Virus record (IMG/VR): IMGVR_UViG_3300025892_002699
DNA length: 64,000 bases
Origin: a virus
Strand: one strand, 5' to 3'
Below, one piece after another: positions 1 through 64,000 of the stretch. The translations under genes and the position numbers were made by a program. Positions within the stretch are counted from its first letter, which is position 1. Each line of letters opens with the position of its first letter. The notes under the pieces were generated by a model, which worked only from the letters and a program-made list of their open reading frames with translations, made no database searches and had not been told where the DNA came from.

Positions 1-225
1 CCAGATGGAAAAATGCATGAAGGTTTTCATGACATGGAAACACTTTTATCTAAAGGTTGTAAGAAACAAAAATTGAGAGCACACAGCGAACGATTACCAA
101 ATCGTGCTGTAAATGAATGGGCATTGAGTTTTCTACCGCAACTAGACATACAAGTTGAAGCCAAGATGAAGAATCAAGCGGCGGAAGATTTACACAATCA
201 GGCTGTTGAGTTGGGTTTAGTATAA
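1..225 (+). CDS. uvsE: UV-damage endonuclease (UvsE/UVDE family), C-terminal part; gene starts before the window
   Basis: Frame is open from base 1. Motifs RAHSE and LDIQVEAKMKNQA resemble the UVDE C-terminal RAHxD...DIMIEAKxKE pattern. Confidence 0.6.
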   Translation, partial: PDGKMHEGFHDMETLLSKGCKKQKLRAHSERLPNRAVNEWALSFLPQLDIQVEAKMKNQAAEDLHNQAVELGLV

Positions 226-227
226 CG

Positions 228-234
228 ATAAATA
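228..234 (+). promoter_or_regulatory. T4-late-like promoter ATAAATA inside a 20-bp palindrome (222-241)
   Basis: ATAAATA lies 5 nt before the ATG at 240. ATAACGATA-AA-TATCGTTAT is an inverted repeat. Confidence 0.6.
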
Positions 235-239
235 TCGTT

Positions 240-794
240 ATGAAACTAGAACACCTTACTGAATCAAAACAAAATAGAGAATCAAAACTAGAAGTGGTAA
301 AACTGCCTTTCAAAATGAAAGAACTATCACCTGTATTATCTGAAGCAAATATCGATTATCATTACAATGTATTAACCAAAGCATACGTGAGAAGATACAA
401 TGATGGTGAAGGTGATGCAGATTTTAATTACGGTGGAGCAAAACTTCACAATATGTTTTGGTTACAATTACAAGCACCTCGTCCAGGTAATAAACCAACT
501 GGTGAAATCAAAACTTTAATAGAATCAAAACACGAATCATTTGAAGCATTCAAAAAAGAATTAATTAGATCAGCAATGACCATACAAGGTTCAGGCTGGG
601 TGTATGTTGCCAAAAATGGTAACATCAAAACTACACCAAATCAATCATATAGAACAGACATTCTAATGCCTGTAGATATGTGGGAACATTCATTTTCGGA
701 TTATGTGCCTGCAAAAGATGCCAAGAAAAAATATATAGAAGGCATGATGAGAATAATTAATTGGGAGTCAATAAATTTAAGACTACAATCTTAA
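240..794 (+). CDS. sodA: Fe/Mn superoxide dismutase, Mn-type signatures
   Basis: Metal ligands DYH, LHN and DMWEH are present, plus GSGW. The GG before the second His and the PNQ motif are MnSOD-type. Confidence 0.88.
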   Translation: MKLEHLTESKQNRESKLEVVKLPFKMKELSPVLSEANIDYHYNVLTKAYVRRYNDGEGDADFNYGGAKLHNMFWLQLQAPRPGNKPTGEIKTLIESKHESFEAFKKELIRSAMTIQGSGWVYVAKNGNIKTTPNQSYRTDILMPVDMWEHSFSDYVPAKDAKKKYIEGMMRIINWESINLRLQS

Positions 795-809
795 AAAAAG
801 GAGACTAAT

Positions 810-983
810 ATGATCAATCAAGTACAAAAATGGATTAATGCCAGAATCAAAGAAAGAACAACACTAGATGGTGCTCTTTTAATTGCGGCAGGAATTTCAT
901 TCTTAATATTCAAACCTATTGCTTCGATTGTTGCTTATGCGGCAATTGTGTATGGTGGTTGGACTATTTGGAAATCAGAATAA
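810..983 (+). CDS. Small membrane protein (57 aa), not in the ORF track
   Basis: AGGAG SD, ATG at 810, TAA at 981-983. MINQVQKWINARIKERTTLDGALLIAAGISFLIF... has two hydrophobic segments. Confidence 0.7.
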   Translation: MINQVQKWINARIKERTTLDGALLIAAGISFLIFKPIASIVAYAAIVYGGWTIWKSE

Positions 984-1271
984 TCACAATTTACTGATAG
1001 GAATATCGCTGGATGCATTCATGCCCAAAACCTGTCTTTGTTTTACACCTTGTTGTTGAGCAAAACGTTTTGGGTCGCATTCAGAACACACGTGTTTATA
1101 AAAAGTAGATAGACGCTTTTTTTCAACTTTGCCTTTGGCTCTTTTAAATTCTTTCTCACACGCATCACATTTGAAGACATGAAACGTTTTAGTGCGTTTG
1201 CATTGGTGTTTCACACCTAGTTTGCTCACACGTTCTGTCTTTGATTCTACTGTTTTTTCACCTAAATACAT
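984..1271 (-). CDS. Zinc-ribbon protein
   Basis: CDAC and CSEC pairs. It has its own GTAAATA motif 5 nt upstream on the minus strand. Confidence 0.7.
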   Translation of the reverse strand: MYLGEKTVESKTERVSKLGVKHQCKRTKTFHVFKCDACEKEFKRAKGKVEKKRLSTFYKHVCSECDPKRFAQQQGVKQRQVLGMNASSDIPISKL

Positions 1272-1276
1272 ATAGG

Positions 1277-1283
1277 TATTTAC
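1277..1283 (-). promoter_or_regulatory. Late-type promoter GTAAATA, divergent from the one at 1305
   Basis: The plus strand reads tatttac, 5 nt from the start codon at 1271. Confidence 0.5.
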
Positions 1284-8810: not shown

Positions 8811-11693
8811 ATGGCAAACAGAATACCACTTATAGTAGACACAACAGACGGTAACAAGATAAAAGAATTACCGATCAATGATAATCTTGATCTTACAAAT
8901 TCAAACCTTGTAGGTGTTAATTCTGTACAAACACAAACATTGAGTATTGCTGGAACACCATTCACTTTACAATACAGTGAATTACAAGGTGCACCCACAA
9001 TACCAGCAGACATTTCTGATCTTACAGACACACAAAGTTTATTAGGACAAGGTGGTGGCGGAGGAATCACCAACATACAAGGTGGTGGTGGTTTAATTGT
9101 TACAGCAGATGATTCTGTGGCAAGAACTGTTTTACCAGGCAACACATTAAAAATTCAAGGTTCGGGCAATGTGACCACAACACTCACAGAAGAAAATGGC
9201 ACAGACGTATTAACTATCGCATCAAGTGGTGGTGGAGGTGGAGTAGCAGATGGCAATACCACATACACATTGACTGGTGCAGATGGAGATGATGCCAACA
9301 GTAAAAAATTAAGATTGAGAGACAGCACAGATGCTATACAGGATATCACTTTGGTTGCAGGCACAAATGTAGGAATCACAAGAAATTCAAATTCATTAAC
9401 ATTTACCAGCACGGATACCGATACAACCTATGGCATATCAAGTGCCCAAGATGATGATGGCGATAAAGTTATTAGATTACAAAGTTCAACTGGTGTCACT
9501 GACGATTTAAAAATAATTGCTGGAACAAATGTATCTGTAACAAGAGCAGATGAAAATTCAATCACAATCAATAACACACAGACATTGTCCAATGCTTTTG
9601 GCACAGTAAGAGTAGGAGTCACAGATGTTGTAGCAGATGCTACCAATGACACATTAACTTTATTAGCAGGCACAGGCATTGTGCTTACACCTAATGCTGG
9701 CAATGACACTATTCAGATTGATAGTTCTGTAACACAACAAAATATTTTCCAAACAATTAGTGGAGACACAGGAACTAAAACAGCAGGAACACAAACCGAC
9801 ACTTTAAATGTTGTGGGCGGCTCATCAATTTCTACCAGTCTATCAGGAAGCACATTAACAATCAATTACACAGGTAACGTAGGTGGTGAAGCCAACAACT
9901 TTGAAATAGTTGCAATAGGAACTCCAGGAGACAATGTTGAATTAATTGCAGACGATCCCAATGATGTATTGTACATAGGCGGTGGATCAGGAATCACAGT
10001 CAGTGCAACAGGAACTGGTTCAGGTCCTGGTGGAGCAGTTGACCAAGTAACAATCACAAATGATGCACCCAACGTGGATCAAAATATTTTCTACAATGTA
10101 GCAGACGATGACGACACAACAATCACAGCATCTTCTATTACAGATACTTTAAAAATTATTGGCGGCACTGACATTTCAACAAATGTTGTTGCTGGCGAAT
10201 TACAAATTTCTTACACAGGTAGCAACAGTAATTTCAATGTTGCAGACAACTTTGCTTACAAAACTTTTGCAATAACACCATCAGGTGGATCAACAACTGC
10301 TAGTTCAAATGTAGACACATTAAACTTCCAAACTGGTGTCGGTATCACAATGACTGCTGTTAATGATTTAATCACAATCACAAACTCATCACCCAATGTG
10401 GATCAAAACATATTTCAAAATGTATTAGCAGGTGGTGTCACAATCACAGCAGATACAACCACAGACACATTGGCATTTACAGCAGGTACAGGTATTACTG
10501 TCACAGGAGATGCTGTAGGTGATGCTGTTACAATCACAAACTCATCACCCAATGTGGATCAAAATATTTTTGCTTCTATAGTATATGGTGCCACTTCTAT
10601 AACTCCTGCTACTTCAAGTCAAGCATTGACATTGGTAAATGGTGGAGGAGTTGATTTTACTTTAAATAATACAAGTAAATCATTAACAATCGCCAACACA
10701 TCTCCAAATGTGGATCAAAACATTTTCAGCACAGTAAGAGTATCAGGTGAAACAGATGTAACCACTGCTTCTACAAATGGTGTGTTAACATTCGTAGCAG
10801 GTACAAACACAACTCTTACCACAGACAACACAGGAAAAAGTGTAACAATTAATTCTTCAGGTTCAACACAAAATTTATTCGCAACTGTTAGTGCTGATGC
10901 AGGCAACACAACAGCAAATTCGGCAACTGACACATTAACTGTAACAGGCGGAAGTGACATCACAACAGCCATTACTGGTGATACTCTGACAATTACAAAC
11001 GCATCACCAAATGTAGATCAAAATTTATTTGCCAATGTTGCAGTTGCAGGACAATCAACAGTTACAGCAGAAACAACAACAGATACATTAAATCTAGTTG
11101 CAGGTACAAACGTTACAATCACTACTGACGCAGGTACAGATTCAATCACAATCAACGCATCAGGTGGTGGGGGTAGTCAGAATTTATGGTCAACCATTAC
11201 AGGTGATTCTGGATTTACCACAGCAAACACAACCACAGACAATTTGACTATTGCTGGTGGTACAGGTATCACATCAGCAGTGACAGGTGACACATTAACA
11301 ATAAGTTCAGATATAGGCACAAGAGGCACAGTGGCAGGCACAACAAGTTCTATTGCCAACAACGCATCTACTAATTTAGATATCACTGGACACAAAGGTT
11401 ACTTCTTGTACAAGATTCAAACATCGGCGGCGGCATGGGTTAGAATTTATTCAAGTGCTTCTGTTAGAACATCAGATTCAGCAAGAAGTGAAACATCTGA
11501 TCCTACACCGGGTTCAGGAGTGATAGCAGAAGCAATCACAACAGGTGCTCAAACAGTTTTGATTACACCGTTTGCAGGTGGCTTTAATGATGAAAATCCG
11601 GTAACAACTACTATTCCATGTGCTGTAACTAACAAAAGTGGATCCACGCAAACAATCACAGTAACATTGACAGTAGTACCAGTAGAGGTATAA
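8811..11693 (+). CDS. Repeat-rich tail fibre-like protein (about 11 units of about 50 aa)
   Basis: Recurring SPNVDQNIF...DTLxxxAGTGI units. Confidence 0.75.
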   Translation: MANRIPLIVDTTDGNKIKELPINDNLDLTNSNLVGVNSVQTQTLSIAGTPFTLQYSELQGAPTIPADISDLTDTQSLLGQGGGGGITNIQGGGGLIVTADDSVARTVLPGNTLKIQGSGNVTTTLTEENGTDVLTIASSGGGGGVADGNTTYTLTGADGDDANSKKLRLRDSTDAIQDITLVAGTNVGITRNSNSLTFTSTDTDTTYGISSAQDDDGDKVIRLQSSTGVTDDLKIIAGTNVSVTRADENSITINNTQTLSNAFGTVRVGVTDVVADATNDTLTLLAGTGIVLTPNAGNDTIQIDSSVTQQNIFQTISGDTGTKTAGTQTDTLNVVGGSSISTSLSGSTLTINYTGNVGGEANNFEIVAIGTPGDNVELIADDPNDVLYIGGGSGITVSATGTGSGPGGAVDQVTITNDAPNVDQNIFYNVADDDDTTITASSITDTLKIIGGTDISTNVVAGELQISYTGSNSNFNVADNFAYKTFAITPSGGSTTASSNVDTLNFQTGVGITMTAVNDLITITNSSPNVDQNIFQNVLAGGVTITADTTTDTLAFTAGTGITVTGDAVGDAVTITNSSPNVDQNIFASIVYGATSITPATSSQALTLVNGGGVDFTLNNTSKSLTIANTSPNVDQNIFSTVRVSGETDVTTASTNGVLTFVAGTNTTLTTDNTGKSVTINSSGSTQNLFATVSADAGNTTANSATDTLTVTGGSDITTAITGDTLTITNASPNVDQNLFANVAVAGQSTVTAETTTDTLNLVAGTNVTITTDAGTDSITINASGGGGSQNLWSTITGDSGFTTANTTTDNLTIAGGTGITSAVTGDTLTISSDIGTRGTVAGTTSSIANNASTNLDITGHKGYFLYKIQTSAAAWVRIYSSASVRTSDSARSETSDPTPGSGVIAEAITTGAQTVLITPFAGGFNDENPVTTTIPCAVTNKSGSTQTITVTLTVVPVEV
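10374..10564 (+). repeat. Exact 35-nt direct repeat (10374-10408 and 10530-10564) within the fibre gene
   Basis: acaatcacaaactcatcacccaatgtggatcaaaa occurs twice, 156 nt apart and in frame. Confidence 0.85.
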
Positions 11694-14090: not shown

Positions 14091-17000
14091 ATGCACGATT
14101 TATGGACAGTTCAAACAGGTTATAATTTAGGTACGTATCAAGAAAGAGTGCCTACCACAATTACATTGCCCGTTTCAGGTGCTGACACAATTACAACAAT
14201 AGCAGGCACAATACCGCCTGGATTAAGATTATCAGGACAAACACTGATTGGAACACCTTTTCAAGTCAGTCGATCCACAAAATTTGAATTTTGCCTTAGA
14301 GCCAAACACGACACAAGAATACAGGATAGAACTTTTACAATTAATATTGAAGGACCTGATGCACCAACATGGATAACACCAGCAGGCACATTGCCTATTG
14401 GAGCAGACAGTCAATTGTTCATATTGGACAGTTCATATGTAGATTTTCAATTGGAGGCTCAAGATGCTGATTTAAGTGCAAACACAGTTTTAGAATATTA
14501 TATTCCAGAAGGTGGTGGAGAATTACCACCTGGATTGACATTAAGTAAATCAGGAAAAATTTCTGGATTGGTAGATCCTATTAGAGCTCTTGACATCTTA
14601 TCAAGTTCAGGGTATTATGATTCTAATGATTATGCATCTGCACCTTTTGACTTTGGTTTATCCGGTTCAATTGCCAACAGAAGTTTTTACTTTGATGTGC
14701 AAGAGTTTTCAGATTTATACAATACACAAGTCGGAACAAGAAATCAAAGAAAATTAAATCGCTATTACAGTTTTAACGTAAATGTGACAGACGGTGATAC
14801 CACCGAGACTAGAACATTCAAAATATTTGTAGTAGGTGATGATTTTTTAAGAGCAGACAACACTATCATGCAGTTGGGAACAGGTGTATTCACATCAGAT
14901 GGAACATATCTTAGAACACCACAGTGGTTAACACCAACTGATTTAGGATTCAAAAGAGCAAACAACTATGTTACAATATTTTTAGAACTTTACGATCCAA
15001 ACACAGTGCCTGGAAAAATAAGTTACATTTTAGAAAACACAAATGATGACAACACTGATTCTATCATACCACCAGGTATGACATTGGATGCTGTTACAGG
15101 AGAAATAGCAGGCAGAGTTCCTTATCAACCTGCTGTAAACAAAGAATATAAATTTACTGTGAGTGCAGTCAGAGCCGGTGTGGGTAGTGATCTGGTCACA
15201 GTGGTTGTAACTCCATACGAAGATCAACCTCAAGGTGGAGACACTTTAAAAATACAAAAATTACCAGTGGGTGAAGCAGATGGATTGGATGATTTAGAAA
15301 GTTTAGTTGGTGAAAAAATTACAATTAACAAAGAAGAATACACAGTATTAGGAGTAGATGGTTCAGATCAAGATTATGAATTACTTACACTGAACAGAAA
15401 CCTTACAGCAAACGATTTATTAGTTTACACTGGCACAGTGTACAATCCCAGTGATTACAGCAATGGAATTCAAACACCAATTGTGAGAGCAAACAACGAA
15501 ATATTTGTTTACAACAGAATATCAAAAGACAAATACAAAAATAGAACATTGAGAATTGGATCTAGTGAATATATTATTTCTGACATACAATCTTTATTGG
15601 CAGAAGGCGAACCTGCATTACAAGGAATTGCAAGTGCAACAGCAATGGAAAAATTGATTCTTAATATTCCATTAACCGATAATTTTGTTAATGAACAAAA
15701 TATAAGCATTGCCGCATTCAAAGACGAATCATACAGCAAAAACTTTTTACTTAACAGCACAGATACAGAACCCACAGCAACCAAAACATTCACAGTTAAA
15801 GTATTAGGAGAAGTTGACAGTACAATAACTTGGACAACAGCATCAGCATTGGGCACTTTGAAAGCAAACTTAACCAGTCATCTTAGATTAGAGGCTACAA
15901 GCACTGTGACTGATGCTAAAATGAAATACTTATTAATGAGTGGCAGTTTGCCTCCAGGACTTAGTCTATCTTTAGATGGTGAAATTGTAGGAAATGCAAG
16001 ATTGTATAGCGAAGATTCGTTACCGGGTATTACATCTTTTGATGATAACCTGTTGACACTTGATGGTGCTACAACCACTGTGGACGAAAGTTATTCATTC
16101 ACTGTGAAAGCTCAAGATAGATTTGGATTCAGTTCTGTTGAACGTACTTTTACTTTGGTGATTGATACAGATGTCACAAAAACATTTACAGATTTATATG
16201 CTCAACCATTATTAAAGTCAACACAACGCAATTACTTTAAAGATTTTATCAGTAACACAAACATATTTGCAATAGATAAAATTTATAGACCTAATGATTC
16301 TAATTTTGGACTACAAAAAACAATGCGTATGTTGGTGTATTCAGGAATTGAAAAGAAAGTTGTTGGTAATTATGTAACAGCAGTTGCAAAGAATCATAAA
16401 CGGGCTAGATTTAACTTTGGAGACATCAAAACAGCAGTGGCAAAATATCCAGGAACAAATAATATTGCCTACGAACTGGTTTATGCAGATGTGGTTGATG
16501 TAAGAGATTCAAAAACATCAAGCACAAGATCATCTTTAAAAATTAATCCACAAAATAAAATTAAAATCAATCAAACTCAATTGGAAGTCACAGATGATTC
16601 AACAAAATTAAATGTTGGTGGTTCTGCTTACACTATTTTTGCTCAAGCAGATTCAAGTTTAAGTGTAGCAGGTGTTGGAACCAGTTTAGAAATTTTTGCA
16701 AGAACAGGCAGACTGTTAGTGGATGTTCCTAATGGAGAATTATTGATAGATATGCAGTCAGGTCCTGATTTATCTGTGGGCACTGTGGAACAAGTGAACG
16801 GTGATCCATTCAGATTCAGACCAAAAAATTCTGTTATCAAAGTGGACAGCAATTTGTTAGAGGCAAGTATGAGCAATGACGAATTGAGATACATCAGCAA
16901 CATTTCTAATATGAGAAACAACATCAAATCTTTAGGCACAACTGAAGGAGGTTTATTACCTCTCTGGATGCGTACAGCACAGACTGGTAATCAAGCATTA

Positions 17001-25826: not shown

Positions 25827-26503
25827 TGGCAACAAAAGCAAAAGCAAAGACAACAAAGAGCTCAGCCAAGGCGGGTGCAAACGCAGACACATCAAAGAAC
25901 CTGGGTAAAGGCACAACAGCCAACGCAGGTGCATACGCAGAAACAGAAGCAGGTGCAGTAGCAAAAGCAAAAAAAGGCAACGCAAGTGCCAACGTAGGTG
26001 CTCACGCAGAAGTGGGAGCATACTCAAACGTGGAGAATGAAACCAAGGTCGGTGGAGTTGGAGTCAAATCAGAAGCACACGCAGGAACAAAAGTTTATTC
26101 AGACGTGGGAGTCTCAGGTCAGATAGGAACCAACGGTGCCAAGGGTGAAGCAGGTGCAATAGCAGGTTCATGTGCTGAAGTGGGAGCAAGTACCACGGTT
26201 GGTGGCGAAAGAAACAATGCAGGAATTGGTGCAAAAGTTTCAGTTGGTCCACAGATCGGTGCCAAAGTGGGCGGCGGTGCAACAGTGGAAGATGGCAAAC
26301 TGACAGTGGGTGCAGACATTAAACTGGCACTTGGTGTTGGTGTTACACTATCACCACAAATTACAGTTGACACGAGACCAGTTGCAAACGCAACTAAAAA
26401 AGTTATCGTGGAACCAGCAAAGAAGGTTGGTAACGCAATCGCGGCTCCATTCAAAAAAATAAAAAAACCATCAAATCCCTTCAAGAGAAAGAAAAAGAAA
26501 TAG
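25826..26503 (+). CDS. Gly/Ala/Val-rich beta-strand protein with Lys-rich termini
   Basis: Alternating-residue strands such as AGAYAETEAG and AGIGAKVSVG; coupled to the spanin gene. Confidence 0.75.
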   Translation: MATKAKAKTTKSSAKAGANADTSKNLGKGTTANAGAYAETEAGAVAKAKKGNASANVGAHAEVGAYSNVENETKVGGVGVKSEAHAGTKVYSDVGVSGQIGTNGAKGEAGAIAGSCAEVGASTTVGGERNNAGIGAKVSVGPQIGAKVGGGATVEDGKLTVGADIKLALGVGVTLSPQITVDTRPVANATKKVIVEPAKKVGNAIAAPFKKIKKPSNPFKRKKKK

Positions 26504-26507: not shown

Positions 26508-26963
26508 ATGAAAAGACTAGATATCAGCGATCAAACTGCAATCAGTATGCCAATGAAAAATTTGATATCCATCGTGGCGGCAGTCGCAGTTGGAGTATGG
26601 GGATATTTTGGTCTAGTGGAAAGAATTACACTGTTGGAAATGAGAAATGCATCACTGACAAAAGATCTAGAACACGCAGAACAAAAACTTACAGCAGACA
26701 TTGAGAAGAACAACGAATTCCGAATCAAATATCCAAGAGGTGAGTTAGGACAGAGCTCACAGGACATAGAACAGTTCATGCTGATAGAAGACCTTTACAC
26801 CACTGTGGATAGAATGCAAAAGCATCTAGACAGTATGTCCAACAACAAGATCAACATAGAATTTCTTAACAAGCAGATGGAGAAAGCACAGAGCAACATC
26901 GAAGCACTCAAAGACGCTGACAGAGAAATTGTGTACAAGAACGGTAATGGAGACTCACACTAA
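26508..26963 (+). CDS. Membrane-anchored coiled-coil hypothetical protein
   Basis: One TM segment followed by a coiled coil. Confidence 0.7.
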   Translation: MKRLDISDQTAISMPMKNLISIVAAVAVGVWGYFGLVERITLLEMRNASLTKDLEHAEQKLTADIEKNNEFRIKYPRGELGQSSQDIEQFMLIEDLYTTVDRMQKHLDSMSNNKINIEFLNKQMEKAQSNIEALKDADREIVYKNGNGDSH

Positions 26964-28134: not shown

Positions 28135-28139
28135 TATCG

Positions 28140-28232: not shown

Positions 28233-28238
28233 AAACAC

Positions 28239-29087: not shown

Positions 29088-29565
29088 AGCACCAGACGAT
29101 TTTTTAGAAAAGAAAGTTAACGATTTTGATTTTAATCAAATGGATGCTGAGAAAATATCTTCAGAAATGTTTGATATAATGAAAAAATATGAAGGTGTTG
29201 GACTTGCCGCAAACCAAGTAGGCATAGACGCACAAATCTTTATCATGGGAGAAGATAAACCCATGACCATTATCAATCCTTTGGTAACAGAAGTCAGCAC
29301 AAATCAAGTGGAAATGATGGAAGGTTGTTTAAGTTTTCCTGGATTGTTTATGAAAGTAAAAAGACCAGACACAGTGGCAGTGAAATACCTTGACACACAA
29401 CAAAAAGAATGTATAATAAAGTTAGAAGGTTTTCATGCAAGAGTATTTCTTCATGAATACGACCATCTTCAAGGCATTACCTTTGATCAAAGAGTTTCAA
29501 AAATGCGTTTGGATATGGCAAGAAAGAAACAAGAAAAAATATTAAAAGGATTTATAAATGGTTGA
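29074..29565 (+). CDS. def: Peptide deformylase
   Basis: GVGLAANQVG, EGCLS and HEYDH motifs. Confidence 0.95.
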   Translation: MKLIKAPDDFLEKKVNDFDFNQMDAEKISSEMFDIMKKYEGVGLAANQVGIDAQIFIMGEDKPMTIINPLVTEVSTNQVEMMEGCLSFPGLFMKVKRPDTVAVKYLDTQQKECIIKLEGFHARVFLHEYDHLQGITFDQRVSKMRLDMARKKQEKILKGFING

Positions 29566-42248: not shown

Positions 42249-44918
42249 ATGAGTTACATAGACGGATACTTTGACAGAAATTCTGATATTATAAGAATTG
42301 TTGAAAGACAAAACAAAGAAAGAGTATTCAAAGAATATCCAATCAAATACACATTCTATCACGAAGATCCAGGTGGCAAATACAAGAGTACTACAGGTAA
42401 GCCTTTAAACAGAATCGTATCTAAGAACACAAAAGATTTTCATAAAGAACTTGCAATCAATAGAAATAAAACTTTATTCGAATCAGACATAAATCCAATC
42501 TTTCAATGTTTAAGTGAAAATTATCTTAATCAAAATGCACCCGATTTAAATATAGCATTCTTTGATATTGAAGCAGACTTTGATCCTGAAAAAGGATTCA
42601 GTCAACCTAGTGATCCATTTATGCCAATCACAGCAATCACAGTTTCATTGCAATGGTTAAACACTATGGTTACGTTTGCTATACCTCCTAAAACAATGGG
42701 TATAGAAGAAGCAAAAGAATTAACAAAAGGCATAGAGAATGTGTATCTTTATAAAGATGAAGCAGATATGCTTAAAGCATTTTTAGATATCATCCAAGAT
42801 GCTGATGTAATATCAGGATGGAATTCAGAAGGTTATGACTTGCCATACATCATAAACAGAATTAAAAAGGTAATGAGTAAAGATGACACAAGACGTTTGT
42901 GTTTATGGAAACAGATGCCAAAGAAAAGAACTTTTGAAAGATATGGTAGAGAACAGGAAACTTATGACCTAGTGGGCAGAGTGCATTTAGATTCATTAGA
43001 ACTTTATAGAAAATACACCTATGAAGAAAGACATTCGTACAGGTTAGATGCTATAGGTGAACATGAAATAGGTGAAAGAAAAACTGTGTATGAAGGTAGT
43101 TTGGATCAACTTTATAATCAAGACTTCAGAACATTTATAGAATACAACAGACAAGATACTGCGTTGTTAGACAAATTGGATCGTAAACTTAGATTCATAG
43201 CACTTTCAAATGAATTAGCACACGCCAACACTGTGTTACTTCAAACAACACTAGGAGCAGTGGCAGTAACAGAACAAGCAATTATAAATGAAGCACATAG
43301 ACGAGGAGTGCAAGTTCCTAATAGACCAAAACGAGATGAAGATTCTACAACAGCCGCAGGTGCATATGTGGCATATCCAAGAAAAGGTTTACACAGTTGG
43401 ATAGGTTCGATGGATATTAATTCACTGTATCCATCTGTGATTAGAGCCTTGAACATGGCTCCAGAATGTGTGATGGGACAATTGAGACCAACATACACAG
43501 ACGAATACATCGAAGAACAAATGACATTGCAGAAGAAGTCATTTGCTGGTGCTTGGGAAAATCATTTTGGATCATTGGAATATGATGCTGTGATGGATAA
43601 AAGAAAAGATATCAGTATTAATGTAGATTGGGAAGATGGTAAATCAGATGTAATGAGTGGTGCTGAAATTTACAAGATGGTATTTGACAGCAACAATCCT
43701 ATGATGATCAGTGCAAATGGAACAATATTTACAAGTGAGTTTGAAGGTGTAATACCTGGACTACTTGCTCGTTGGTACAAAGAAAGAAAAGAAATGCAGG
43801 CAATGTTGAAAAAAGCCAAAGAGGCAAAGAATGATGCAGAGATTGAATTTTGGGATAAACGACAGTTGGTTAAGAAGATTAACTTGAACAGTTTGTATGG
43901 TGCTATTCTAAATCCTGGTTGTAGATTCTTTGACAAACGTATTGGACAATCAACAACACTGTCGGGCAGACAGATATCCAAACACATGGCATCCAAGATC
44001 AATGAAGTAATAACAGGCGAATACAATCATGTTGGTAAAGCAATGATATATGGTGATACAGATTCAGCATACTTTTCAGCATATGAAGTATTGAAAAAAG
44101 AAATAGACGAAGGAAAAATTCCTTGGACTAAAGAAAGTGTTGTGAAACTGTATGATCAAGTGGCAGGTGAAGTGAACAATTCATTTAAAAAGTTTATGGG
44201 ACAAGCATTTCATTGTATGAGATCAAGAGCAGAAGTTATTCAAGCAGGTAGAGAAAGTGTGGCAACATCAGGTTTGTTTATTACAAAGAAAAGATATGCC
44301 ATATTGATATATGACTTAGAAGGATTTAGAACTGATCAAGAAGGCAAAAGTGGAAAAATTAAAGCAATGGGATTAGATTTAAAAAGATCAGATACACCTG
44401 TTTACATTCAAAATTTTTTATCTGAATTATTATTAATGGTGCTGAACAATAACACAGAAGAACAAGTGTTGGATAAAATCACACAATTCAGAAATGAATT
44501 TAAAACTAGACCTGGCTGGGAGAAAGGATCTCCACGTAGAGCAAACAACATAGGCGAATATGCTAAAAAAGAAGCACGTCAAGGTAAAGCAAATATGCCT
44601 GGACACGTTAGAGCAAGTATCAACTGGAACACACTTAAACGTATGAACAGCGACAAGTATTCACAAGAAATTATGGATGGCATGAAAGTAATTGTATGTA
44701 AATTGAAAAAGAATCCATTGGACTTTACTAGTGTTGCATATCCTGTAGACGAATTGCATATTCCACAATGGTTTAAAGAATTGCCATTTGATGATGCTAC
44801 AATGGAAAGCACAATAATTGATAACAAATTAGGCAACTTGCTTGGAGTATTAGGTTGGGATATCAAGTCAACTGAAAGCAAAAATACATTTAACAACCTA
44901 TTTGATTTTGGAGGATAG
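42249..44918 (+). CDS. polB: Family B DNA polymerase (T4 gp43-like)
   Basis: Exonuclease motifs FDIEAD, GWNSEGYD and YNRQD; polymerase motifs MDINSLYPS, KINLNSLYG and YGDTDS. Confidence 0.96.
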   Translation: MSYIDGYFDRNSDIIRIVERQNKERVFKEYPIKYTFYHEDPGGKYKSTTGKPLNRIVSKNTKDFHKELAINRNKTLFESDINPIFQCLSENYLNQNAPDLNIAFFDIEADFDPEKGFSQPSDPFMPITAITVSLQWLNTMVTFAIPPKTMGIEEAKELTKGIENVYLYKDEADMLKAFLDIIQDADVISGWNSEGYDLPYIINRIKKVMSKDDTRRLCLWKQMPKKRTFERYGREQETYDLVGRVHLDSLELYRKYTYEERHSYRLDAIGEHEIGERKTVYEGSLDQLYNQDFRTFIEYNRQDTALLDKLDRKLRFIALSNELAHANTVLLQTTLGAVAVTEQAIINEAHRRGVQVPNRPKRDEDSTTAAGAYVAYPRKGLHSWIGSMDINSLYPSVIRALNMAPECVMGQLRPTYTDEYIEEQMTLQKKSFAGAWENHFGSLEYDAVMDKRKDISINVDWEDGKSDVMSGAEIYKMVFDSNNPMMISANGTIFTSEFEGVIPGLLARWYKERKEMQAMLKKAKEAKNDAEIEFWDKRQLVKKINLNSLYGAILNPGCRFFDKRIGQSTTLSGRQISKHMASKINEVITGEYNHVGKAMIYGDTDSAYFSAYEVLKKEIDEGKIPWTKESVVKLYDQVAGEVNNSFKKFMGQAFHCMRSRAEVIQAGRESVATSGLFITKKRYAILIYDLEGFRTDQEGKSGKIKAMGLDLKRSDTPVYIQNFLSELLLMVLNNNTEEQVLDKITQFRNEFKTRPGWEKGSPRRANNIGEYAKKEARQGKANMPGHVRASINWNTLKRMNSDKYSQEIMDGMKVIVCKLKKNPLDFTSVAYPVDELHIPQWFKELPFDDATMESTIIDNKLGNLLGVLGWDIKSTESKNTFNNLFDFGG

Positions 44919-46252: not shown

Positions 46253-46450
46253 ATGCAAAAAAAGAAAAAACCAGGCATAATAGATAGAATAGGTAAAATG
46301 CATTCTAAAGTTTTTACCTATGTGAGTAAAAAAGCAAAAACATCTAGACTTTGGGCTATACTACTGACAGTTCTTGTGATCTATGAATTGATAGAACACT
46401 TGATATATCCTTGGTTAGTTCCACTTTTAGCAATTAAGGCATTTGGATAA
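46253..46450 (+). CDS. Small membrane protein
   Basis: Start corrected to 46253; basic N-terminus and a TM segment. Confidence 0.65.
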   Translation: MQKKKKPGIIDRIGKMHSKVFTYVSKKAKTSRLWAILLTVLVIYELIEHLIYPWLVPLLAIKAFG

Positions 46451-47933
46451 TATGGATAAGAAAATCATACCCACTGACAACCTAACTGAAAAGCAAAAAG
46501 ACTACGCAACATTTTTGCCAGCATTAAGCAGTTTTTATGCTAGGGATCTTGGTAAAGCAAGACATCAAGAAGACTATATAAAACCTGAAAGAGTGCCTCA
46601 AAACTTTGAACATGGTGTTGAAGGAATGAATTACATGAGTTCCAAAGACACTTATTTCTATTACAAGTGGCATCTATATTCGGCGGGTCATGCTGATTTA
46701 AACATGGATCATTTTTCTGTAAGAGATGATATAATCAGAAACAGAGACAGAAAAGACAATTGGGTATTAGGTGATTCAGGGGGATTTCAGATAGGTAAAG
46801 GTGTTTGGGAAGGCGATTGGAAAGATCCTAATTGCCCTAAAGCCAAAAAGAAACGTGAACAGGTGTTGGCGTTTATGGATGGTAACATGGACTATGGTAT
46901 GATATTGGATATACCTGCTTGGGTATCTCGTTCTCCTGCGGGTGCGGCGGCAAGTAAAATCAGTTCATATCAAGAAGCAGTTGATGGCACAAAAATTAAC
47001 AATGACTATTTTATGAAAAATCGTAATGGTAATTGTAAGTTCTTAAATGTATTACAAGGTGAAAACTTTCAACAAGCAGATGATTGGTACACACAGATGA
47101 AACACTATTGTGATCCTAAACAATTTCCTAGCACACATTTTAATGGTTGGGCAATGGGTGGTCAAAATATGTGTGATATACACTTGGCATTGAAACGTTT
47201 GGTTGCTTTGAGATTTGATGGATTATTGGAAAAGGGTGTGCATGATGTTATGCACTTCTTAGGTACAAGTAAATTAGAGTGGGCAGTGTTGCTGACAGAC
47301 GTTCAGAGAGCGATTAGAAAGTATCATAATGAGAACTTTATGATCACATTTGATTGTGCTTCACCGTTCCTAGCCAGTGCTAATGGACAAATTTATACAG
47401 ATATTGAAATTGAAGACAAAAAGAAATGGACTTATAGAATGCAACCTAGTGTTGACAACAAGGATTTTTCATCTGAAACAAAATTGTTTAGAGAGGCTGT
47501 GTTAGAAAAAGGCATCTTTAATAATTTCATGGACAGTGCAATCAGCAAAAGACTGATGCTGAAAGACATCACTTGTTACAAGCCAGGTGATCTAAACAAA
47601 ATGGGCAACGAAGGTAAAACTTCTTGGGATTCATTCAGTTACACATTACAAATGGCACACAATGTTTGGACACACATTTCAGCAGTACAAGAAGCAAATC
47701 GTCAATACGATGCAGGATTAAATCCTAAAATGTTAGTGGAAGAAAAATTTGACAGAGTTGCTTTTAAAGATATTGTGAATGCTGTGTTTGCCACAAGCAG
47801 TAGAGATGAAGCAAATGCAGTAGTAGAAGAGTTTTCCAGATTCTGGATGTCAATTATTGGCACTAGAGGAGCAACAGGTAAAAAGACTGTGAATGCAAGT
47901 ACACAGTTTTCTAACTTATTTGAGGAGGCATAA
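46443..47933 (+). CDS. dpdA: TGT-fold base-exchange transglycosylase (DpdA-like)
   Basis: GDSGGFQ, MILDIP, VLQG, HFLG, TFDCASP and HN motifs; no CxCxxC; same cluster as folE and queE. Confidence 0.78.
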   Translation: MDNMDKKIIPTDNLTEKQKDYATFLPALSSFYARDLGKARHQEDYIKPERVPQNFEHGVEGMNYMSSKDTYFYYKWHLYSAGHADLNMDHFSVRDDIIRNRDRKDNWVLGDSGGFQIGKGVWEGDWKDPNCPKAKKKREQVLAFMDGNMDYGMILDIPAWVSRSPAGAAASKISSYQEAVDGTKINNDYFMKNRNGNCKFLNVLQGENFQQADDWYTQMKHYCDPKQFPSTHFNGWAMGGQNMCDIHLALKRLVALRFDGLLEKGVHDVMHFLGTSKLEWAVLLTDVQRAIRKYHNENFMITFDCASPFLASANGQIYTDIEIEDKKKWTYRMQPSVDNKDFSSETKLFREAVLEKGIFNNFMDSAISKRLMLKDITCYKPGDLNKMGNEGKTSWDSFSYTLQMAHNVWTHISAVQEANRQYDAGLNPKMLVEEKFDRVAFKDIVNAVFATSSRDEANAVVEEFSRFWMSIIGTRGATGKKTVNASTQFSNLFEEA

Positions 47934-52249: not shown

Positions 52250-52805
52250 AAAAGGTTTATCATCACCAGTACCACAAAATCATCTAGCATCTAATGGTGT
52301 GTATGTTTTAATGGAAGAAATTACAATGGAGTCTTGTAGAAATTGTTTAACTTGGATTATGAATCATAATCTAGCAGAAACAAGACTTCCACAATTAACT
52401 TTAATTATTAATTCACCAGGTGGCGATGTTCACGCCGCATTTGCATTAATTGACACAATGAAAGCAAGTACTATACCAATTAAAACTGTGGGATTAGGAT
52501 TAATTGCTTCGTGTGGATTTTTATTATTCATAGCAGGGAAAAAAGGTTCAAGAATATTAACACCTAACACTGCAATACTATCACACCAATACAGTTGGGG
52601 CAGTGCAGGAAAAGAACATGAACTGTATGCAAGAGTAAAAGAGTTTGAATTGAGTACAAACAGAATGATTGAACACTACAAAAAATGTATTGGTATGAGC
52701 GAGAAGCAAATAAGAGAAATTTTACTTCCACCGCAAGACGTTTGGTTATCTGCCAAAGAAGCAAAGAGACTTAAAATTTGTGACAAAGTAGAAGAGTTAT
52801 ACTAA
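52242..52805 (+). CDS. clpP: ClpP-like protease subunit
   Basis: INSPGG; catalytic Ser in IASCG, His in LSHQ and Asp in QDVWLSA. Confidence 0.85.
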   Translation: MAKKGLSSPVPQNHLASNGVYVLMEEITMESCRNCLTWIMNHNLAETRLPQLTLIINSPGGDVHAAFALIDTMKASTIPIKTVGLGLIASCGFLLFIAGKKGSRILTPNTAILSHQYSWGSAGKEHELYARVKEFELSTNRMIEHYKKCIGMSEKQIREILLPPQDVWLSAKEAKRLKICDKVEELY

Positions 52806-53209
52806 TGCGTGAAGACTTGATGGTGCAACAACAAGTTTCAAACACTTGGCAACACATGGTGGGTGTTATTTGCTTGAATCAAACTAATCGTAAACAAGTC
52901 AAAGCAGTACTGCCTAAACTGTTTAAAAAATGGGCAACACATACAGAACTTCTCAGTTCTGCAAACATTTCTGATCTTGAGAAAATACTCAAGCCATTAG
53001 GAATGCAAAAAAAGAAAGCAGAAAGAATATACAGAATGAGTCAACAATTTAGCGGTTGGAACGGTGATGATGCCACAGAGTTATACGGCATAGGCAAATA
53101 CGGTTCAGACAGTTATAGATTGTTTTATAAAAATGAAGTACCAACGAATGTTGGTGATCATGAACTTAACAGATATATCATAGAGGAGTTAAATTTATAT
53201 GGCGAGTAA
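52805..53209 (+). CDS. MBD4-like HhH DNA glycosylase (stand-alone catalytic domain)
   Basis: LNQT, KPLG, ELYGIGKYGSDSYRLF and DHELNRY closely follow the MBD4 glycosylase signature. Confidence 0.8.
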   Translation: MREDLMVQQQVSNTWQHMVGVICLNQTNRKQVKAVLPKLFKKWATHTELLSSANISDLEKILKPLGMQKKKAERIYRMSQQFSGWNGDDATELYGIGKYGSDSYRLFYKNEVPTNVGDHELNRYIIEELNLYGE

Positions 53210-56411: not shown

Positions 56412-56624
56412 ATGGCAAGTAGACAACACATATATGACGCAATGGTGGCACACGCCAAAGGACATATAGAAAAACACGCAACAAATGTGCAAATTTATAT
56501 GGAAAAGGCTGTGGGAATTGGTGAACACGGAGACATTCTTGAAACTATAGAAAAAGAATTAAAAGTGATTGCTGAATATCATGATCAATTAGAAGTTTTA
56601 GAAAAATATATCAAGAGGGACTAA
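56412..56624 (+). CDS. Hypothetical helical protein
   Basis: SD present; coupled to folE. Confidence 0.75.
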   Translation: MASRQHIYDAMVAHAKGHIEKHATNVQIYMEKAVGIGEHGDILETIEKELKVIAEYHDQLEVLEKYIKRD

Positions 56625-57298
56625 TGAAAGCATCAGAACGAATAAGACAAAGGCTGAAGGAAAAAGATATTAGATTTCACAGTAATGATAATATCGCTGA
56701 TTTTATAGAACAAGGTGAACTGGAAGAACTTCAAAAAGAAGTTGAAGAAAATTTTGCAGGAGTTCTTGATGCATTGGTGATTGATACTGAAAATGATCAC
56801 AACACAAAAGAAACTGCAAGACGTGTTGCTAAAATGTACATAAAAGAAATATTTGGTGGTAGATTTGTTCAACCGCCTAAAGTTACTTCTTTTCCTAATA
56901 TGGGATATAGAAGTTTATACACTAGCGGTCCGATTAGTGTTAAGTCTACGTGTGCTCACCATTTTCAGAACATTGTAGGAAAATGTTGGGTTGGTGTATT
57001 GCCGGAGAAGGAAGTAATAGGACTTTCTAAATTTAATAGAATAGTTCATCATATTGCAGAACGTCCGCAGATACAAGAAGAGATGACAACACAGATTGCA
57101 GAAGCATTACAGAAATATGCAAAAACTCCTAACGTGGCTGTATTGATAAAAGCAGAACATCATTGTATGACACACAGAGGTGTAAGAGAACATGAATCAG
57201 ATATGACAACTGCTATCATGCTAGGTGCATTTGATAGCCATGCTCCACTTAAGAAAGAGTTTTATGATATTTGTATGAGTATGAAGGGTCATGAGTAA
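56624..57298 (+). CDS. folE: GTP cyclohydrolase I
   Basis: TARRVAK, STCAHH, GLSKFNR, RPQIQEE and HHCM..RG motifs. Confidence 0.95.
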   Translation: MKASERIRQRLKEKDIRFHSNDNIADFIEQGELEELQKEVEENFAGVLDALVIDTENDHNTKETARRVAKMYIKEIFGGRFVQPPKVTSFPNMGYRSLYTSGPISVKSTCAHHFQNIVGKCWVGVLPEKEVIGLSKFNRIVHHIAERPQIQEEMTTQIAEALQKYAKTPNVAVLIKAEHHCMTHRGVREHESDMTTAIMLGAFDSHAPLKKEFYDICMSMKGHE

Positions 57299-58187
57299 AC
57301 TTAGATATTCAGAAGCATTTTATTCCATACAGGGCGAAGGTCGTTTTGTGGGAGTACCAAGTGTATTCTTGAGAACATTCGGTTGTAATTTTCGTTGTAT
57401 GAACTTTGGTTTAGATAAAGAACCAAACAGAGCAGAAAAACTCAAACAAGGAATAAAATTCAATCCGGAAGTTAAAAAGTTATTGGATGAAGGGATTACT
57501 GACAAAGTGGATAAGTTTGAAGACTTGCCAATAGTACACACAGGCTGTGACACTTATGCCAGTATATACCCTGAGTTCAAAAAGTATATGATGGACAAGA
57601 CCATTGACGAAGTGGTGGATCATGTGTTATCATTAACTCCTGAAGGAAAGTGGACTATGTCTAATGGACAAGATGTACACTTTATATTAACAGGTGGTGA
57701 GCCTTTGTTAGGATGGCAAAGAACTTACATAGAATTATTTGAACATCCTAGAATGAAGGATTTAAAAAATGTTACTTTCGAAACAAATACAACGCAGACT
57801 TTACATAAGGATTTTGAAGATTATCTCAGAAAACAAGACAGATTCCAGGTCACTTGGTCATGCTCTCCAAAACTTTCCGTATCAGGTGAACCTTGGGACA
57901 CTGCTATCAAGCCTGAAATTGCTAGGTCTTATAATGGGATTCCTAATAGCGAAATGTATTTCAAATTTGTGGTTGCTGATGCTTCCGATGTTGATGAAGT
58001 TGCACAGGCAGTTGCCGAGTTCAATCAAGTGGGAATCAACGTTCCCGTTTATGTCATGCCACTGGGAGGAAGATCAGAAACATACAGCCTCAACACAAAA
58101 AAGGTTGCCGAACTTGCAATGGCAAGAGGATGGAGATACACTCCAAGACTACACGTCGACATATTCGGAAATGCCTGGGGGACTTGA
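57291..58187 (+). CDS. queE: 7-carboxy-7-deazaguanine synthase (radical SAM)
   Basis: FYSIQGEG, FLRTFGCNFRC...GCDT, LTGGEP, ETN, SPK and RLH motifs. Confidence 0.9.
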   Translation: MSKLRYSEAFYSIQGEGRFVGVPSVFLRTFGCNFRCMNFGLDKEPNRAEKLKQGIKFNPEVKKLLDEGITDKVDKFEDLPIVHTGCDTYASIYPEFKKYMMDKTIDEVVDHVLSLTPEGKWTMSNGQDVHFILTGGEPLLGWQRTYIELFEHPRMKDLKNVTFETNTTQTLHKDFEDYLRKQDRFQVTWSCSPKLSVSGEPWDTAIKPEIARSYNGIPNSEMYFKFVVADASDVDEVAQAVAEFNQVGINVPVYVMPLGGRSETYSLNTKKVAELAMARGWRYTPRLHVDIFGNAWGT

Positions 58188-62264: not shown

Positions 62265-62274
62265 TAGTGTTGAA

Positions 62275-62303
62275 TATAGGGCACTTTTTACCGGTGCCCT
62301 ATA
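62275..62303 (+). terminator. 10-bp stem-loop after the ATPase gene (no U-tract)
   Basis: TATAGGGCAC-N9-GTGCCCTATA. Confidence 0.45.
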
Positions 62304-62314
62304 CCAAAAAAGAG

Positions 62315-62343
62315 TTGACTAATTTACCAAAAGAAAGTATAAT
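62315..62343 (+). promoter_or_regulatory. sigma70 promoter TTGACT-N17-TATAAT, leaderless geometry
   Basis: The -10 box ends 6 nt before the ATG at 62350. Confidence 0.8.
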
Positions 62344-62349
62344 AGTATT

Positions 62350-63606
62350 ATGAACACAGACACTTTAGAAATAGAAAAAAAAGAATTAAGTCCAGAAGAG
62401 TTGAAAACCCTTAGAGCAGAAGTTATTGATAAAATTGTGGTTGCTAGAGTTGGATTATTATTAAGACATCCTTTCTTTGGTAATATGGCGACAAGATTAC
62501 AAATTAAAGAATGTGATGAATGGTGTCCTACTGCCGCAACTGATGGCAGAAACTTATTTTTTAACACAGAGTTTTTTAGCAAGATGACATCTAAAGAAAT
62601 TGAATTCGTTATAGCACACGAAATACTTCATTGTGTATTTGATCATATGACAAGAAGAGAAGACCGAGATCCACAACTTCATAATATTGCTTGTGATTAT
62701 ATTGTGAACAATACTTTGGTTAGAGATAACATTGGAGAAAAACCAAAAGATGTACAAATATTTCAAGATTGGAAATATGATGGTTGGGCAAGTGAAGCCG
62801 TGTATGATGATATCTACAAAAAAGGTAAAGAACAAATGGAACAGTTGGGTAAACTGTTAGATGAACACATTGATTGGGAAAATGGTGAAAGCACAGGTGG
62901 TGGTGGAGATAAACAGGACAATAAAGATAAAAAGAAAGGTCCTTCATACTCTAAAGAAGAATTAGAAAATATTAAGAATGAAATTAAAGAAAGCATGATG
63001 GCGGCGGCACAGGCATCAGGTGCGGGTAATATGCCTAAAGAAATTGAAAGAATTATTCAACAATTCACAGAACCTAAAATGAATTGGAGAGAATTATTAC
63101 AACAACAAATACAGAGTGTGATTAAAAATGATTATACATTTGCTAGACCTAGTAGAAAAGGTTGGCACTCAGGTGTTATACTTCCAGGCACTAATTACGA
63201 TGACACAATAGATATTTGTATTGCTATTGACACATCAGGTTCAATACAGAATGAACAGGTTGAAGATTTCTTAGGCGAAGTTCAAAGTATTATGGATCAA
63301 TACAAAGATTACAATATTAAGATATGGTGCTTTGACACAGACGTACACAATGAACAAGACTTTAATGCATCTGGTCAAGCACTAGACACATACAAAATAG
63401 AAGGTGGCGGTGGTACAGATTTTATGGCTAATTGGGAGTATATGAAAGAAAATGACATTGTGCCTAAAAAATTCATCATGTTTACAGATGGTTACACATG
63501 GGACGGTTGGGGAGAAGATGATTACTGTGATACTGTGTTTGTTATTAATGGTCATCATGACAAGAACATGGAAGCACCTTTTGGTACTACTGTTCATTAT
63601 GAATAA
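62350..63606 (+). CDS. Metallopeptidase-like plus VWA domain protein (DUF2201-type), MoxR partner
   Basis: TAATDG, HEILH (HExxH), MIDAS IDTSGS, GGGGTDF and FTDG motifs. Confidence 0.87.
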   Translation: MNTDTLEIEKKELSPEELKTLRAEVIDKIVVARVGLLLRHPFFGNMATRLQIKECDEWCPTAATDGRNLFFNTEFFSKMTSKEIEFVIAHEILHCVFDHMTRREDRDPQLHNIACDYIVNNTLVRDNIGEKPKDVQIFQDWKYDGWASEAVYDDIYKKGKEQMEQLGKLLDEHIDWENGESTGGGGDKQDNKDKKKGPSYSKEELENIKNEIKESMMAAAQASGAGNMPKEIERIIQQFTEPKMNWRELLQQQIQSVIKNDYTFARPSRKGWHSGVILPGTNYDDTIDICIAIDTSGSIQNEQVEDFLGEVQSIMDQYKDYNIKIWCFDTDVHNEQDFNASGQALDTYKIEGGGGTDFMANWEYMKENDIVPKKFIMFTDGYTWDGWGEDDYCDTVFVINGHHDKNMEAPFGTTVHYE

Positions 63607-63893
63607 TGTTTTCAAAAACTAATCAAGTAAATCCGTTAAATTATTTCAACTGTAGACAGTTTACCAAAAAACCTCGTGGGTTAGAATTCCTAAAATTAAA
63701 TTATGATTGGAACGACAACGAAGAACTTATGGAAAAATGGATTCTAGAAAACCTTAGAGGAAGATTCTATATTGGTAAACATCAAGGTGTAGACACAGAT
63801 GGAAAAATAGTAAACCAAATTTTGGTAGGATTCGAAAACTCAAAAGAACTGTCAATATTCAATCTTAGTTGCCCTTTCATCAAACGTTATTAA
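63606..63893 (+). CDS. Hypothetical phage protein
   Basis: TAATG-coupled ORF. Confidence 0.7.
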   Translation: MFSKTNQVNPLNYFNCRQFTKKPRGLEFLKLNYDWNDNEELMEKWILENLRGRFYIGKHQGVDTDGKIVNQILVGFENSKELSIFNLSCPFIKRY

Positions 63894-63929
63894 ATACTTC
63901 TGTATACAATAATAAAGGAGCATTTTAAA

Positions 63930-64000
63930 ATGACAGATACAAACCAAACAAAAACTGCCACAACTCCGACTCAAGATCAAATAGTTGGAAAAGATGTAGC
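63930..64000 (+). CDS. Start of a gene truncated by the window end
   Basis: AAGGAG SD followed by MTDTNQTKTATTPTQDQIVGK. Confidence 0.6.
   Translation, partial: MTDTNQTKTATTPTQDQIVGKDV

Follow-up and report, generated by a model that had tools for sequence, protein, structure and literature searches.

Site avoidance is a textbook strategy of phages, the classical cases including the loss of GATC from Staphylococcus phage K and of GGCC from Bacillus phages. The present work concerns two words, AGCT and GCWGC, which are avoided in a 64,000-nucleotide stretch of the IMG/VR virus record IMGVR_UViG_3300025892_002699 (the window, to the whole of which observed counts refer unless otherwise stated) and in the phage clade to which it belongs. 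A survey of avoidance (Rusinov et al. 2018, PMC6286503) associates the phenomenon with the sites that orthodox Type II restriction systems recognise and with non-temperate double-stranded DNA (dsDNA) phages, and reports that the sites are almost fully eliminated in roughly one genome out of ten. The case described here is the same known strategy in a new, abundant clade of marine jumbo phages, with the twist that the survival of a site is conditional on its flanking base, and it stands out for its clarity and its scale: a tetramer has in effect been eliminated from some 360 kb of genome, the selection is ongoing, and close kin differ from one another in a stepwise manner. The lineage is probably under continuous purifying selection against AGCT and GCWGC, exerted by Type II-like nucleases of its hosts.

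The abundance of each word was compared with the counts expected under four null models: base composition, a dinucleotide Markov model, a maximal-order Markov model, and a codon shuffle in which synonymous codons are permuted within each gene, which keeps each protein and its codon usage. AGCT occurs 4 times in the window, compared to expected counts of 214, 198, 137 and 164 ± 9.5 under the four models respectively (z = -17 for the codon shuffle), and GCWGC is absent (GCAGC 0 and GCTGC 0 by exact count), compared to 44, 64, 75 and 63 ± 4 (z = -15). A first-pass annotation of the window, which had called for such counts against Markov and codon-shuffled nulls, had claimed that GCAGC and GCTGC are missing, that AGCT is found only at 14585, 16109, 25859 and 26754, each time as AGCTC, and that none lies in clpA or polB. 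All of these statements prove exact, and the ratios of observed to expected counts are far from 1. Three of the four surviving sites are GAGCTC (14585..14588, 25859..25862 and 26754..26757), and the fourth, at 16109..16112, is AAGCTC, which reads GAGCTT on the other strand. The sites at 14585 and 16109 lie in the open reading frame (ORF) at 14091-17192, which encodes an Ig-domain tail-fibre-like protein (Pfam He_PIG), and the remaining two lie in ORFs 25826-26503 and 26508-26963, both without a family match. Both words are absent from the gene for the ClpA/ClpB-like AAA+ chaperone (29558..31807, plus strand; Pfam AAA_2, AAA_lid_9, ClpB_D2-small and Clp_N) and from the gene for the family B DNA polymerase, polB (42249..44918, plus strand; Pfam DNA_pol_B), which served as the marker for collecting relatives and building their tree.

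Other restriction-type words are common in the window, as the annotation had also noted, with exact counts of 231 for GATC, 174 for GANTC, 77 for CCWGG and 78 for GCSGC. The last of these is 2.9-fold overrepresented (78 compared to 27 expected, z = +12) while the total for GCNGC is near expectation, which indicates that the central W of the word has been replaced by S. An unbiased screen of every 5-mer and 6-mer, run on the window together with one relative, yields a top tier of depleted words that consists entirely of words containing AGCT or GCWGC. The pattern is that by which restriction-site avoidance is defined, namely Type II palindromes that are underrepresented relative to nulls which take composition into account.

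The words have been removed by means of synonymous codons whose choice depends on context. Alanine is written overall as GCA 818 times, GCT 319, GCC 150 and GCG 89, yet the first codon of the 70 Ala-Ala pairs is GCG in 53 cases, GCC in 17, and never GCA or GCT. The annotation had cited four Ala-Ala runs as examples, and all four are Ala-Ala-Ala written GCG-GCG-GCA (11427..11435 on the plus strand, with the others at 45967, 61518 and 63001). The avoidance of AGCT is equally visible at codon boundaries: GCT is used in 2 of 471 instances after a codon ending in A but in 317 of 909 after other codons, AGC is used in 2 of 217 instances before T but in 109 of 947 elsewhere, and Lys-Leu, Glu-Leu and Gln-Leu are never written xAG-CTN, while xAG-TTR and xAA-CTN are both in use. 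In PolB, 5 of the 7 AGCT sites of a relative that does not avoid the word are rewritten synonymously in the window with the amino acids unchanged, for example GAA GCT to GAA GCA, AAG CTA to AAA TTG, and AGC TTT to TCA TTT. Codon pairs and PolB orthologues thus both display a removal of sites that is neutral for the protein, and the choice of GCG or GCC before Ala, of xAA before CTN, and of AGT or TCN before T takes this form because the proteins must be kept.

The source of the window is a cosmopolitan, uncultured marine jumbo myovirus with a genome of about 360 kb, whose nearest cultured kin are phages of the Atu_ph07, Phosso and Rak2 types. The genome size follows from a relative with 95% PolB identity, whose contig of 148 kb is estimated to be 41% complete, and a relative at 70% identity is a complete genome of 400 kb. 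The closest cultured polymerases are those of Sinorhizobium phage Phosso (49%), Agrobacterium phage Atu_ph07 (45.5%) and the Rak2/121Q-type jumbo phages of E. coli (44%), while a nucleotide search against cultured phages returned two short pelagiphage matches only, which are too weak for naming a host. Sequencing runs of six studies from 2014-2025, mostly labelled marine, contain 98-99% of the sampled words of polB, and runs of a seventh study contain about half of them.

The distribution of the avoidance was mapped across 380 PolB relatives in IMG/VR. On the PolB tree, 42 independent marine contigs from dozens of assemblies form one clade with the window (approximate likelihood-ratio test support 100, long stem), and each of these contigs contains 0-4 copies of AGCT, compared to 14-70 expected, and no GCWGC. 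Relatives at about 70% PolB identity mostly have normal counts. Some relatives outside the clade have lost one of the words: GCWGC alone is lost in three contigs (L046, L047 and L049) whose sister (L045) is normal, AGCT alone is lost in a contig of the other main branch (L080; 3 compared to 38 expected), and AGCT is partly depleted in another (L041). AGCT and GCWGC are therefore separate targets, each of which has been purged more than once, since the lineages that avoid one motif only reveal two independent pressures. Two contigs which appeared to be leaky avoiders (L037 and L047) were rejected as such, because their leftover sites are confined to one contig end. The confinement of leftover AGCT or GCWGC to one end of a purged contig (L037:1-2434 and L047:1-330) suggests recent recombination with phages that do not avoid these words, or chimeric assembly.

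The same distribution bears on the suggestion that the deficit was produced by a mutational bias, such as the deamination of methylcytosine, or by errors of sequencing or assembly at modified motifs. Methylated motifs are a cause of systematic base-calling errors in long reads, and GCWGC differs from the overrepresented GCSGC by a single base. The purge is nevertheless shared by 42 contigs from dozens of assemblies, polB recurs nearly word for word in the runs of the six studies, long ORFs are intact, and the purge is missing from sister lineages that share the gene content. The changes are also synonymous at whichever position happens to be silent, rather than C to T at a methylated base. An origin in deamination or artefact is scarcely credible, being effectively refuted by the independent assemblies and by the pattern of synonymous positions.

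The avoidance is not a relic of past selection. The 148 kb clade member (G001) contains no GCWGC, compared to 140 expected, and 5 copies of AGCT, compared to 485, and it can be aligned with the window over 56.7 kb at 84% identity, with 8,601 substitutions. When these substitutions are placed at random, with type and codon position kept, they create 146 ± 12 AGCT and 39 ± 6 GCWGC sites, far in excess of the 4 and 0 found in the real window, and it follows that selection has acted continuously. In the proposed mechanism, double-stranded AGCT and GCWGC (which is GCAGC on either strand) would be continuously selected against, with mutation creating new sites and selection removing them, and a genome free of sites would be uncuttable irrespective of its methylation state. 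Weaker selection, variable between sublineages, would act on GCGC, CGCG, GGCC, RCATGY and a few hexamers.

These further words are depleted in the window to differing extents, with 5 copies of GCGC compared to 39 expected, 2 of CGCG compared to 15, 24 of GGCC compared to 60, and 14 of RCATGY compared to 104. GCATGC is absent, with few copies expected (3.7 under the codon shuffle and 14 under the dinucleotide model). The relative G001 has erased RCATGY entirely (0 compared to 210) and TTGCAA almost entirely (5 compared to 112), while in the window TTGCAA is not erased (33 compared to 51). Two other relatives are depleted in hexamer sets of their own, one in CTGCAG, GTGCAC and ACGCGT (G002), and the other in GTGCAC, AGCGCT, GTCGAC and ACGCGT (G003). 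The set of avoided words is thus specific to the lineage and differs among relatives, and sets of short palindromes of this kind are recognised as the mark that orthodox Type II systems leave on non-temperate dsDNA phages (PMC6286503). A single CviJI-like specificity, RGCY, was considered as a common cause for the depletion of AGCT and GGCC and was rejected, as AGCC/GGCT is at expectation (227 compared to 222). The non-palindromic word AGCCC/GGGCT is itself depleted about 10-fold in the clade (8 compared to 36 in the window and 5 compared to 87 in G001), but not in G002 (335 compared to 406), and AGCCCT is absent where 42 copies would be expected on both strands; the depletion of AGCCC/GGGCT may point to a target of Type IIS- or Type III-like enzymes.

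The number and turnover of the depleted words also bear on the alternative, raised by the first-pass annotation, that the phages themselves encode nucleases which cut AGCT and GCWGC in host DNA, with their own genome made safe by its lack of these sites. Self-protection of this kind would need near-total absence, and a trait that spread with a nuclease gene would fit the patchy recurrence, and the DNA examined amounts to about half of the clade genome. The depleted words number at least six, however, in sets that differ between genomes 84% identical, which would require several nucleases with fast turnover; the residual sites, two of which are in tRNA genes, would be cut by the phage itself; and the tolerance of a 5' G described below, which is shared across motifs, is hard to assign to several unrelated enzymes. 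No nuclease of an avoided specificity was recognised among the 40 of 77 window ORFs scanned, restriction nucleases being hard to recognise by sequence, and neither such a nuclease nor a cognate methyltransferase was found in those ORFs or in the 148 kb of G001, so the suggestion gains no support here and is distinctly unlikely. In five related contigs (G001-G005) no C5 or D12 methyltransferase was found. An N6/N4 DNA methyltransferase of 295 residues is found, with an ORF of 113 residues, in G001 only (L083:4678-5945), inserted between orthologues of DUF1353 and DnaJ with nothing recognisable as a nuclease beside it, while the window has at this place a gap of 421 nucleotides (27818-28238) that lacks the gene. 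A phage methyltransferase as a cause or correlate of the avoidance was rejected, the sole N6/N4 enzyme of these contigs being present only in G001 and absent from the window.

Restriction by host Type II-like nucleases is the probable agent. The annotation had proposed long-term selection by AluI-like and TseI-like host systems, and this proposal is supported in part, and indirectly, by the clade-specific and still active synonymous removal of palindromes at AluI-like and TseI/BbvI-like words. Several points weigh against host restriction. A search of genome contigs with the ClpA-like gene pointed to no host, its best matches being of at most 43% identity in scattered taxa, mostly gut Clostridia by way of AT-rich seed peptides, and no enzyme cognate to the words was found. 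Six or more specificities are a lot for one host and imply exposure to a diverse host population, and the search for phage nucleases covered the window and 148 kb of G001, the full genome being about 360 kb long. The match of motifs to methylomes by which the annotation had hoped to predict the host finds no known organism with both AGCT and GCWGC: in marine and lake methylomes, AGCT carries N4-methylcytosine (m4C) in Thaumarchaeota and GCWGC carries m4C in Chloroflexi, never together, and the methyltransferases are orphans (PMC6329791, PMC8919816).

The same methylomes suggest a different agent. Methyltransferases of the hosts, often orphans, might mark AGCT and GCWGC, and methylation-dependent nucleases (Type IV or Type IIM) of the next host would then destroy the marked DNA, so that the sites would be purged. 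AGCT and GCWGC with m4C are among the commonest motifs of aquatic metaepigenomes and are produced by methyltransferases without a partner nuclease (PMC6329791, PMC8919816), GCWGC is among the listed Type IIM recognition sites (PMC6286503), and DNA methylated by M.AluI is a substrate of McrBC (PMC12707154). The survey nevertheless found that modification-dependent enzymes cause weak avoidance only, which it ascribed to overlap with Type II sites (PMC6286503), and a phage that has Shine-Dalgarno-type starts at 37 of its 77 window genes, and cultured relatives that infect alphaproteobacteria and enterobacteria, is unlikely to have Thaumarchaeota or Chloroflexi as its hosts. Avoidance of methylation is an unlikely explanation, and it is inseparable from classical restriction by sequence alone.

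The sites that survive follow a rule of their own. Among the distinct residual AGCT sites of the clade, 16 of 18 have G directly 5' on one strand (GAGCT, or AGCTC on the other), compared to a background of 0.28 in relatives that do not avoid the word (p = 1e-7), and all 3 residual sites of the independent avoider L080 are flanked in the same way. The rule suggested by the window, that residual AGCT is always AGCTC, is accordingly refined across the clade to a G that is 5' on either strand. Observed counts were compared with those expected under a phase-aware codon-shuffle null, with which the dinucleotide model agrees, for the window and G001 together, according to whether the site has the flank on neither side, one side or both sides. 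For AGCT with a 5' G, the observed and expected counts are 0/404 with no flank, 5/135 with one and 4/9.3 with both; for GCGC with a 5' G they are 0/53, 27/67 and 3/8.8; for GGCC with a 5' G they are 27/143, 58/60 and 0/3.5; and for CGCG, where the flank is a 5' C or 3' G, they are 1/33, 12/24 and 5/3.4. GCWGC differs from these words in having no flank tolerance, with counts for a 5' G of 0/121, 0/47 and 0/3.5.

Related rules are found in two other phages. In the Pelagibacter phage HTVC008M (L212-L219), the observed and expected counts of unflanked sites are 0/208 for GATC, 0/141 for GAWTC and 0/91 for GASTC, while GATC with G on one side is at 55/78 and with G on both sides at 28/7, which makes GGATCC 4-fold overrepresented (28 compared to 7). 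Two other words are nearly erased from this phage, TCGA (2 compared to 182) and CASTG (10 compared to 256). In the Vibrio phage KVP40 (L199-L209), GGCC and GGWCC are spared mainly if G-flanked, with GGCC at 11/173 for no flank, 16/55 for one and 5/4 for both.

Surviving sites of a fixed form raise the question of whether AGCT and GCWGC are reserved as phage signals, for packaging, nicking, replication or transcription, and hence excluded elsewhere. The recurrence of one hexamer, GAGCTC, at 3 of the 4 survivors of the window speaks for such a role, and the excess of GGATCC in HTVC008M, in which other GATC sites are purged, hints at flanked sites that are positively kept. GCWGC, on the other hand, has no copies that could serve in this way, the survivors are placed within ordinary coding sequence at unrelated genes with no conserved position seen among members of the clade, and several unrelated palindromes are affected, in sets that differ among close relatives. 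A signalling role is very unlikely.

The flank rule can also be read in the light of a cluster of genes for 7-deazaguanine synthesis in the window. The cluster encodes a GTP cyclohydrolase I, FolE, which catalyses the first step of 7-deazaguanine synthesis (56624..57298, plus strand; PF01227, E = 3.9e-46; phrog_2197), a QueE-like radical-SAM enzyme of the 7-carboxy-7-deazaguanine synthase family (57291..58187, plus strand; phrog_2076, E = 1.2e-51), and a QueD-like ORF (50622-51005) whose sole match is an unannotated PHROG. A candidate DNA guanine transglycosylase, identified by fold search and conserved motifs, is encoded at 46443..47933 (plus strand) as a divergent protein of 496 residues with the fold of tRNA-guanine transglycosylase (TGT) and DpdA. 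No match to this protein was found in Pfam, in PHROGs, in phmmer and profile searches of the PDB, or in a genome search with PF01702. Its 20 homologues contain invariant LGDSGGFQ and GWAMGG blocks, which resemble the catalytic motifs of TGT. The AlphaFold2 model has a predicted template modelling score (pTM) of 0.75 and a predicted local distance difference test score (pLDDT) of 68, and the top 50 listed of 110 Foldseek matches in the PDB at E <= 0.001 are all tRNA-guanine transglycosylases with probability 1.0, at E values of about 1e-4 and TM scores of 0.3-0.4. Translated searches of cultured phages find homologues only in PA5oct-like Pseudomonas phages, in Phosso and in Vibrio phage 2.275.O. 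The homologues in cultured jumbo phages have 27-35% identity to the protein and are annotated as hypothetical.

Phage DpdA enzymes are specific for context, modifying GA, or GA plus GGC (PMC10484667), and the dG+ DNA of phage 9g is still cleaved by AluI, HhaI, HinP1I and BstUI (PMC5567051), whose words are the words depleted here. A literature search on how 7-deazaguanine affects AluI gave no further usable account. It is possible, with the balance leaning somewhat against it, that a guanine modification of the phage covers some G contexts only, that the unshielded sites have been purged, and that AGCT, GCGC and GGCC with a 5' G are partly or fully tolerated as a modified G abuts them. A specific form of this idea, which is on the whole doubtful, makes the flank rule the footprint of a context-specific shield, in which a 7-deazaguanine derivative placed at G-purine steps by the TGT-fold enzyme would block cutting at adjacent sites, and the purge would fall on HAGCTD, HGCGCD, HGGCCD and all GCWGC. 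Against a guanine shield, the cluster, its TGT-like gene included, is present in avoiding and non-avoiding relatives alike, HGGCCD is depleted even though a GG step lies within it, GCWGC has no flank tolerance, and HTVC008M, in which no homologue of the deazaguanine genes of the window was found, has a similar flank rule. KVP40 was considered as a control free of modification and was rejected, as it carries homologues of FolE and QueE (70765-71298 and 153729-154610). The assertion of the first-pass annotation that the base modification fails to block the nucleases is therefore plausible to the extent that FolE, QueE, the TGT fold, the cutting of 9g DNA and the G-flanked survivors agree with it, and is weakened by the flank rule of HTVC008M, which is found without these genes.

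Two further genes lie within the 7-deazaguanine cluster. One encodes ClpP (52242-52805), and the other a protein of 134 residues with the HhH-GPD fold of base-excision glycosylases (52805-53209), which is kept in G001 and G003 and might act in base exchange either together with the TGT-like enzyme or in its stead. All long ORFs of the window are on the plus strand, and their products include proteins of the tail fibre and the baseplate, a clamp loader, the family B polymerase, an exonuclease, a proteostasis set and the proteins of the 7-deazaguanine cluster. The proteostasis set consists of DnaJ (28239-29087), peptide deformylase (29074-29565), the ClpA/B-like AAA+ protein (29558-31807) and ClpP. 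A gene for an Rv2179c-like 3'-5' exoribonuclease (44919-45467) lies directly 3' of polB, and is found at 39 of 43 clade A loci and at none of 37 more distant relatives.

The sets of avoided words (AGCT, GCWGC, GCGC, CGCG, RCATGY and others) constitute a defence fingerprint, which could link the clade to its hosts once it is matched with the methylomes or the restriction repertoires of marine organisms. That the same two words have been lost independently in separate sublineages points to AluI-like and TseI-like systems as barriers widespread among the relevant marine hosts. The tolerance of a 5' G is statistically very strong and is not found in the avoidance survey (PMC6286503). Were a guanine modification its cause, avoidance and modification would be seen to complement one another; were it not, and HTVC008M hints at this, G-flanked sites in marine phages would have some general, unexplained protection. 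Should the shield exist, the modification motif of uncultured phages and their division of labour between modification and avoidance would be readable from genome sequence alone, and the rule in HTVC008M would indicate that other marine phages possess yet another shield, which has so far escaped recognition. The PA5oct-type phages, Phosso and Vibrio phage 2.275.O are cultured carriers of the TGT-fold homologue and are open to direct testing for guanine modification.

The clade can be compared with four groups of known systems. HTVC008M and KVP40 resemble the window in that the purged palindromes are spared mainly where they have a 5' G, but the motifs concerned are other ones, GGCC is spared in HTVC008M with the opposite flank, and the flank rule for AGCT in the window amounts to a GA step rather than to a repeated outer base. 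The phages with partial DpdA systems, CAjan (GA plus GGC), iggy (GA) and 9g (dG+), share FolE, QueE and a TGT-fold protein with the window (PMC7544227, PMC10484667, PMC5567051). The candidate transglycosylase of the window is, unlike their DpdA proteins, too divergent for sequence searches of Pfam, PHROGs and the PDB, no QueC was seen in the window in the first-pass annotation, and the consulted parts of the same papers make no mention of avoidance combined with modification (PMC7544227, PMC10484667, PMC5567051). DpdA3, which replaces guanine fully in the Campylobacter phage CP220, the Cellulophaga phage phiST and the Flavobacterium phage immuto (PMC10516641), has in common with the window a putative distant TGT homologue and a pathway that apparently ends at 7-carboxy-7-deazaguanine (CDG), but translated searches find no homologue of the TGT-fold protein in these three phages, and a replacement of every G of the DpdA3 type would leave the purging of G-containing sites hard to explain.

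The closest resemblance is to the site-avoiding phages of the survey (PMC6286503): in these as in the window, Type II palindromes of 4-5 bp are almost wholly lost through synonymous codons, kin differ from one another, and the phage is a dsDNA virus of virulent type. The clade departs from them in that its survivors obey the 5'-G flank rule, the word "flank" being absent from the survey (PMC6286503), and in that the loss of a tetramer extends over about 360 kb of genome and the same two words have been purged independently in separate sublineages.

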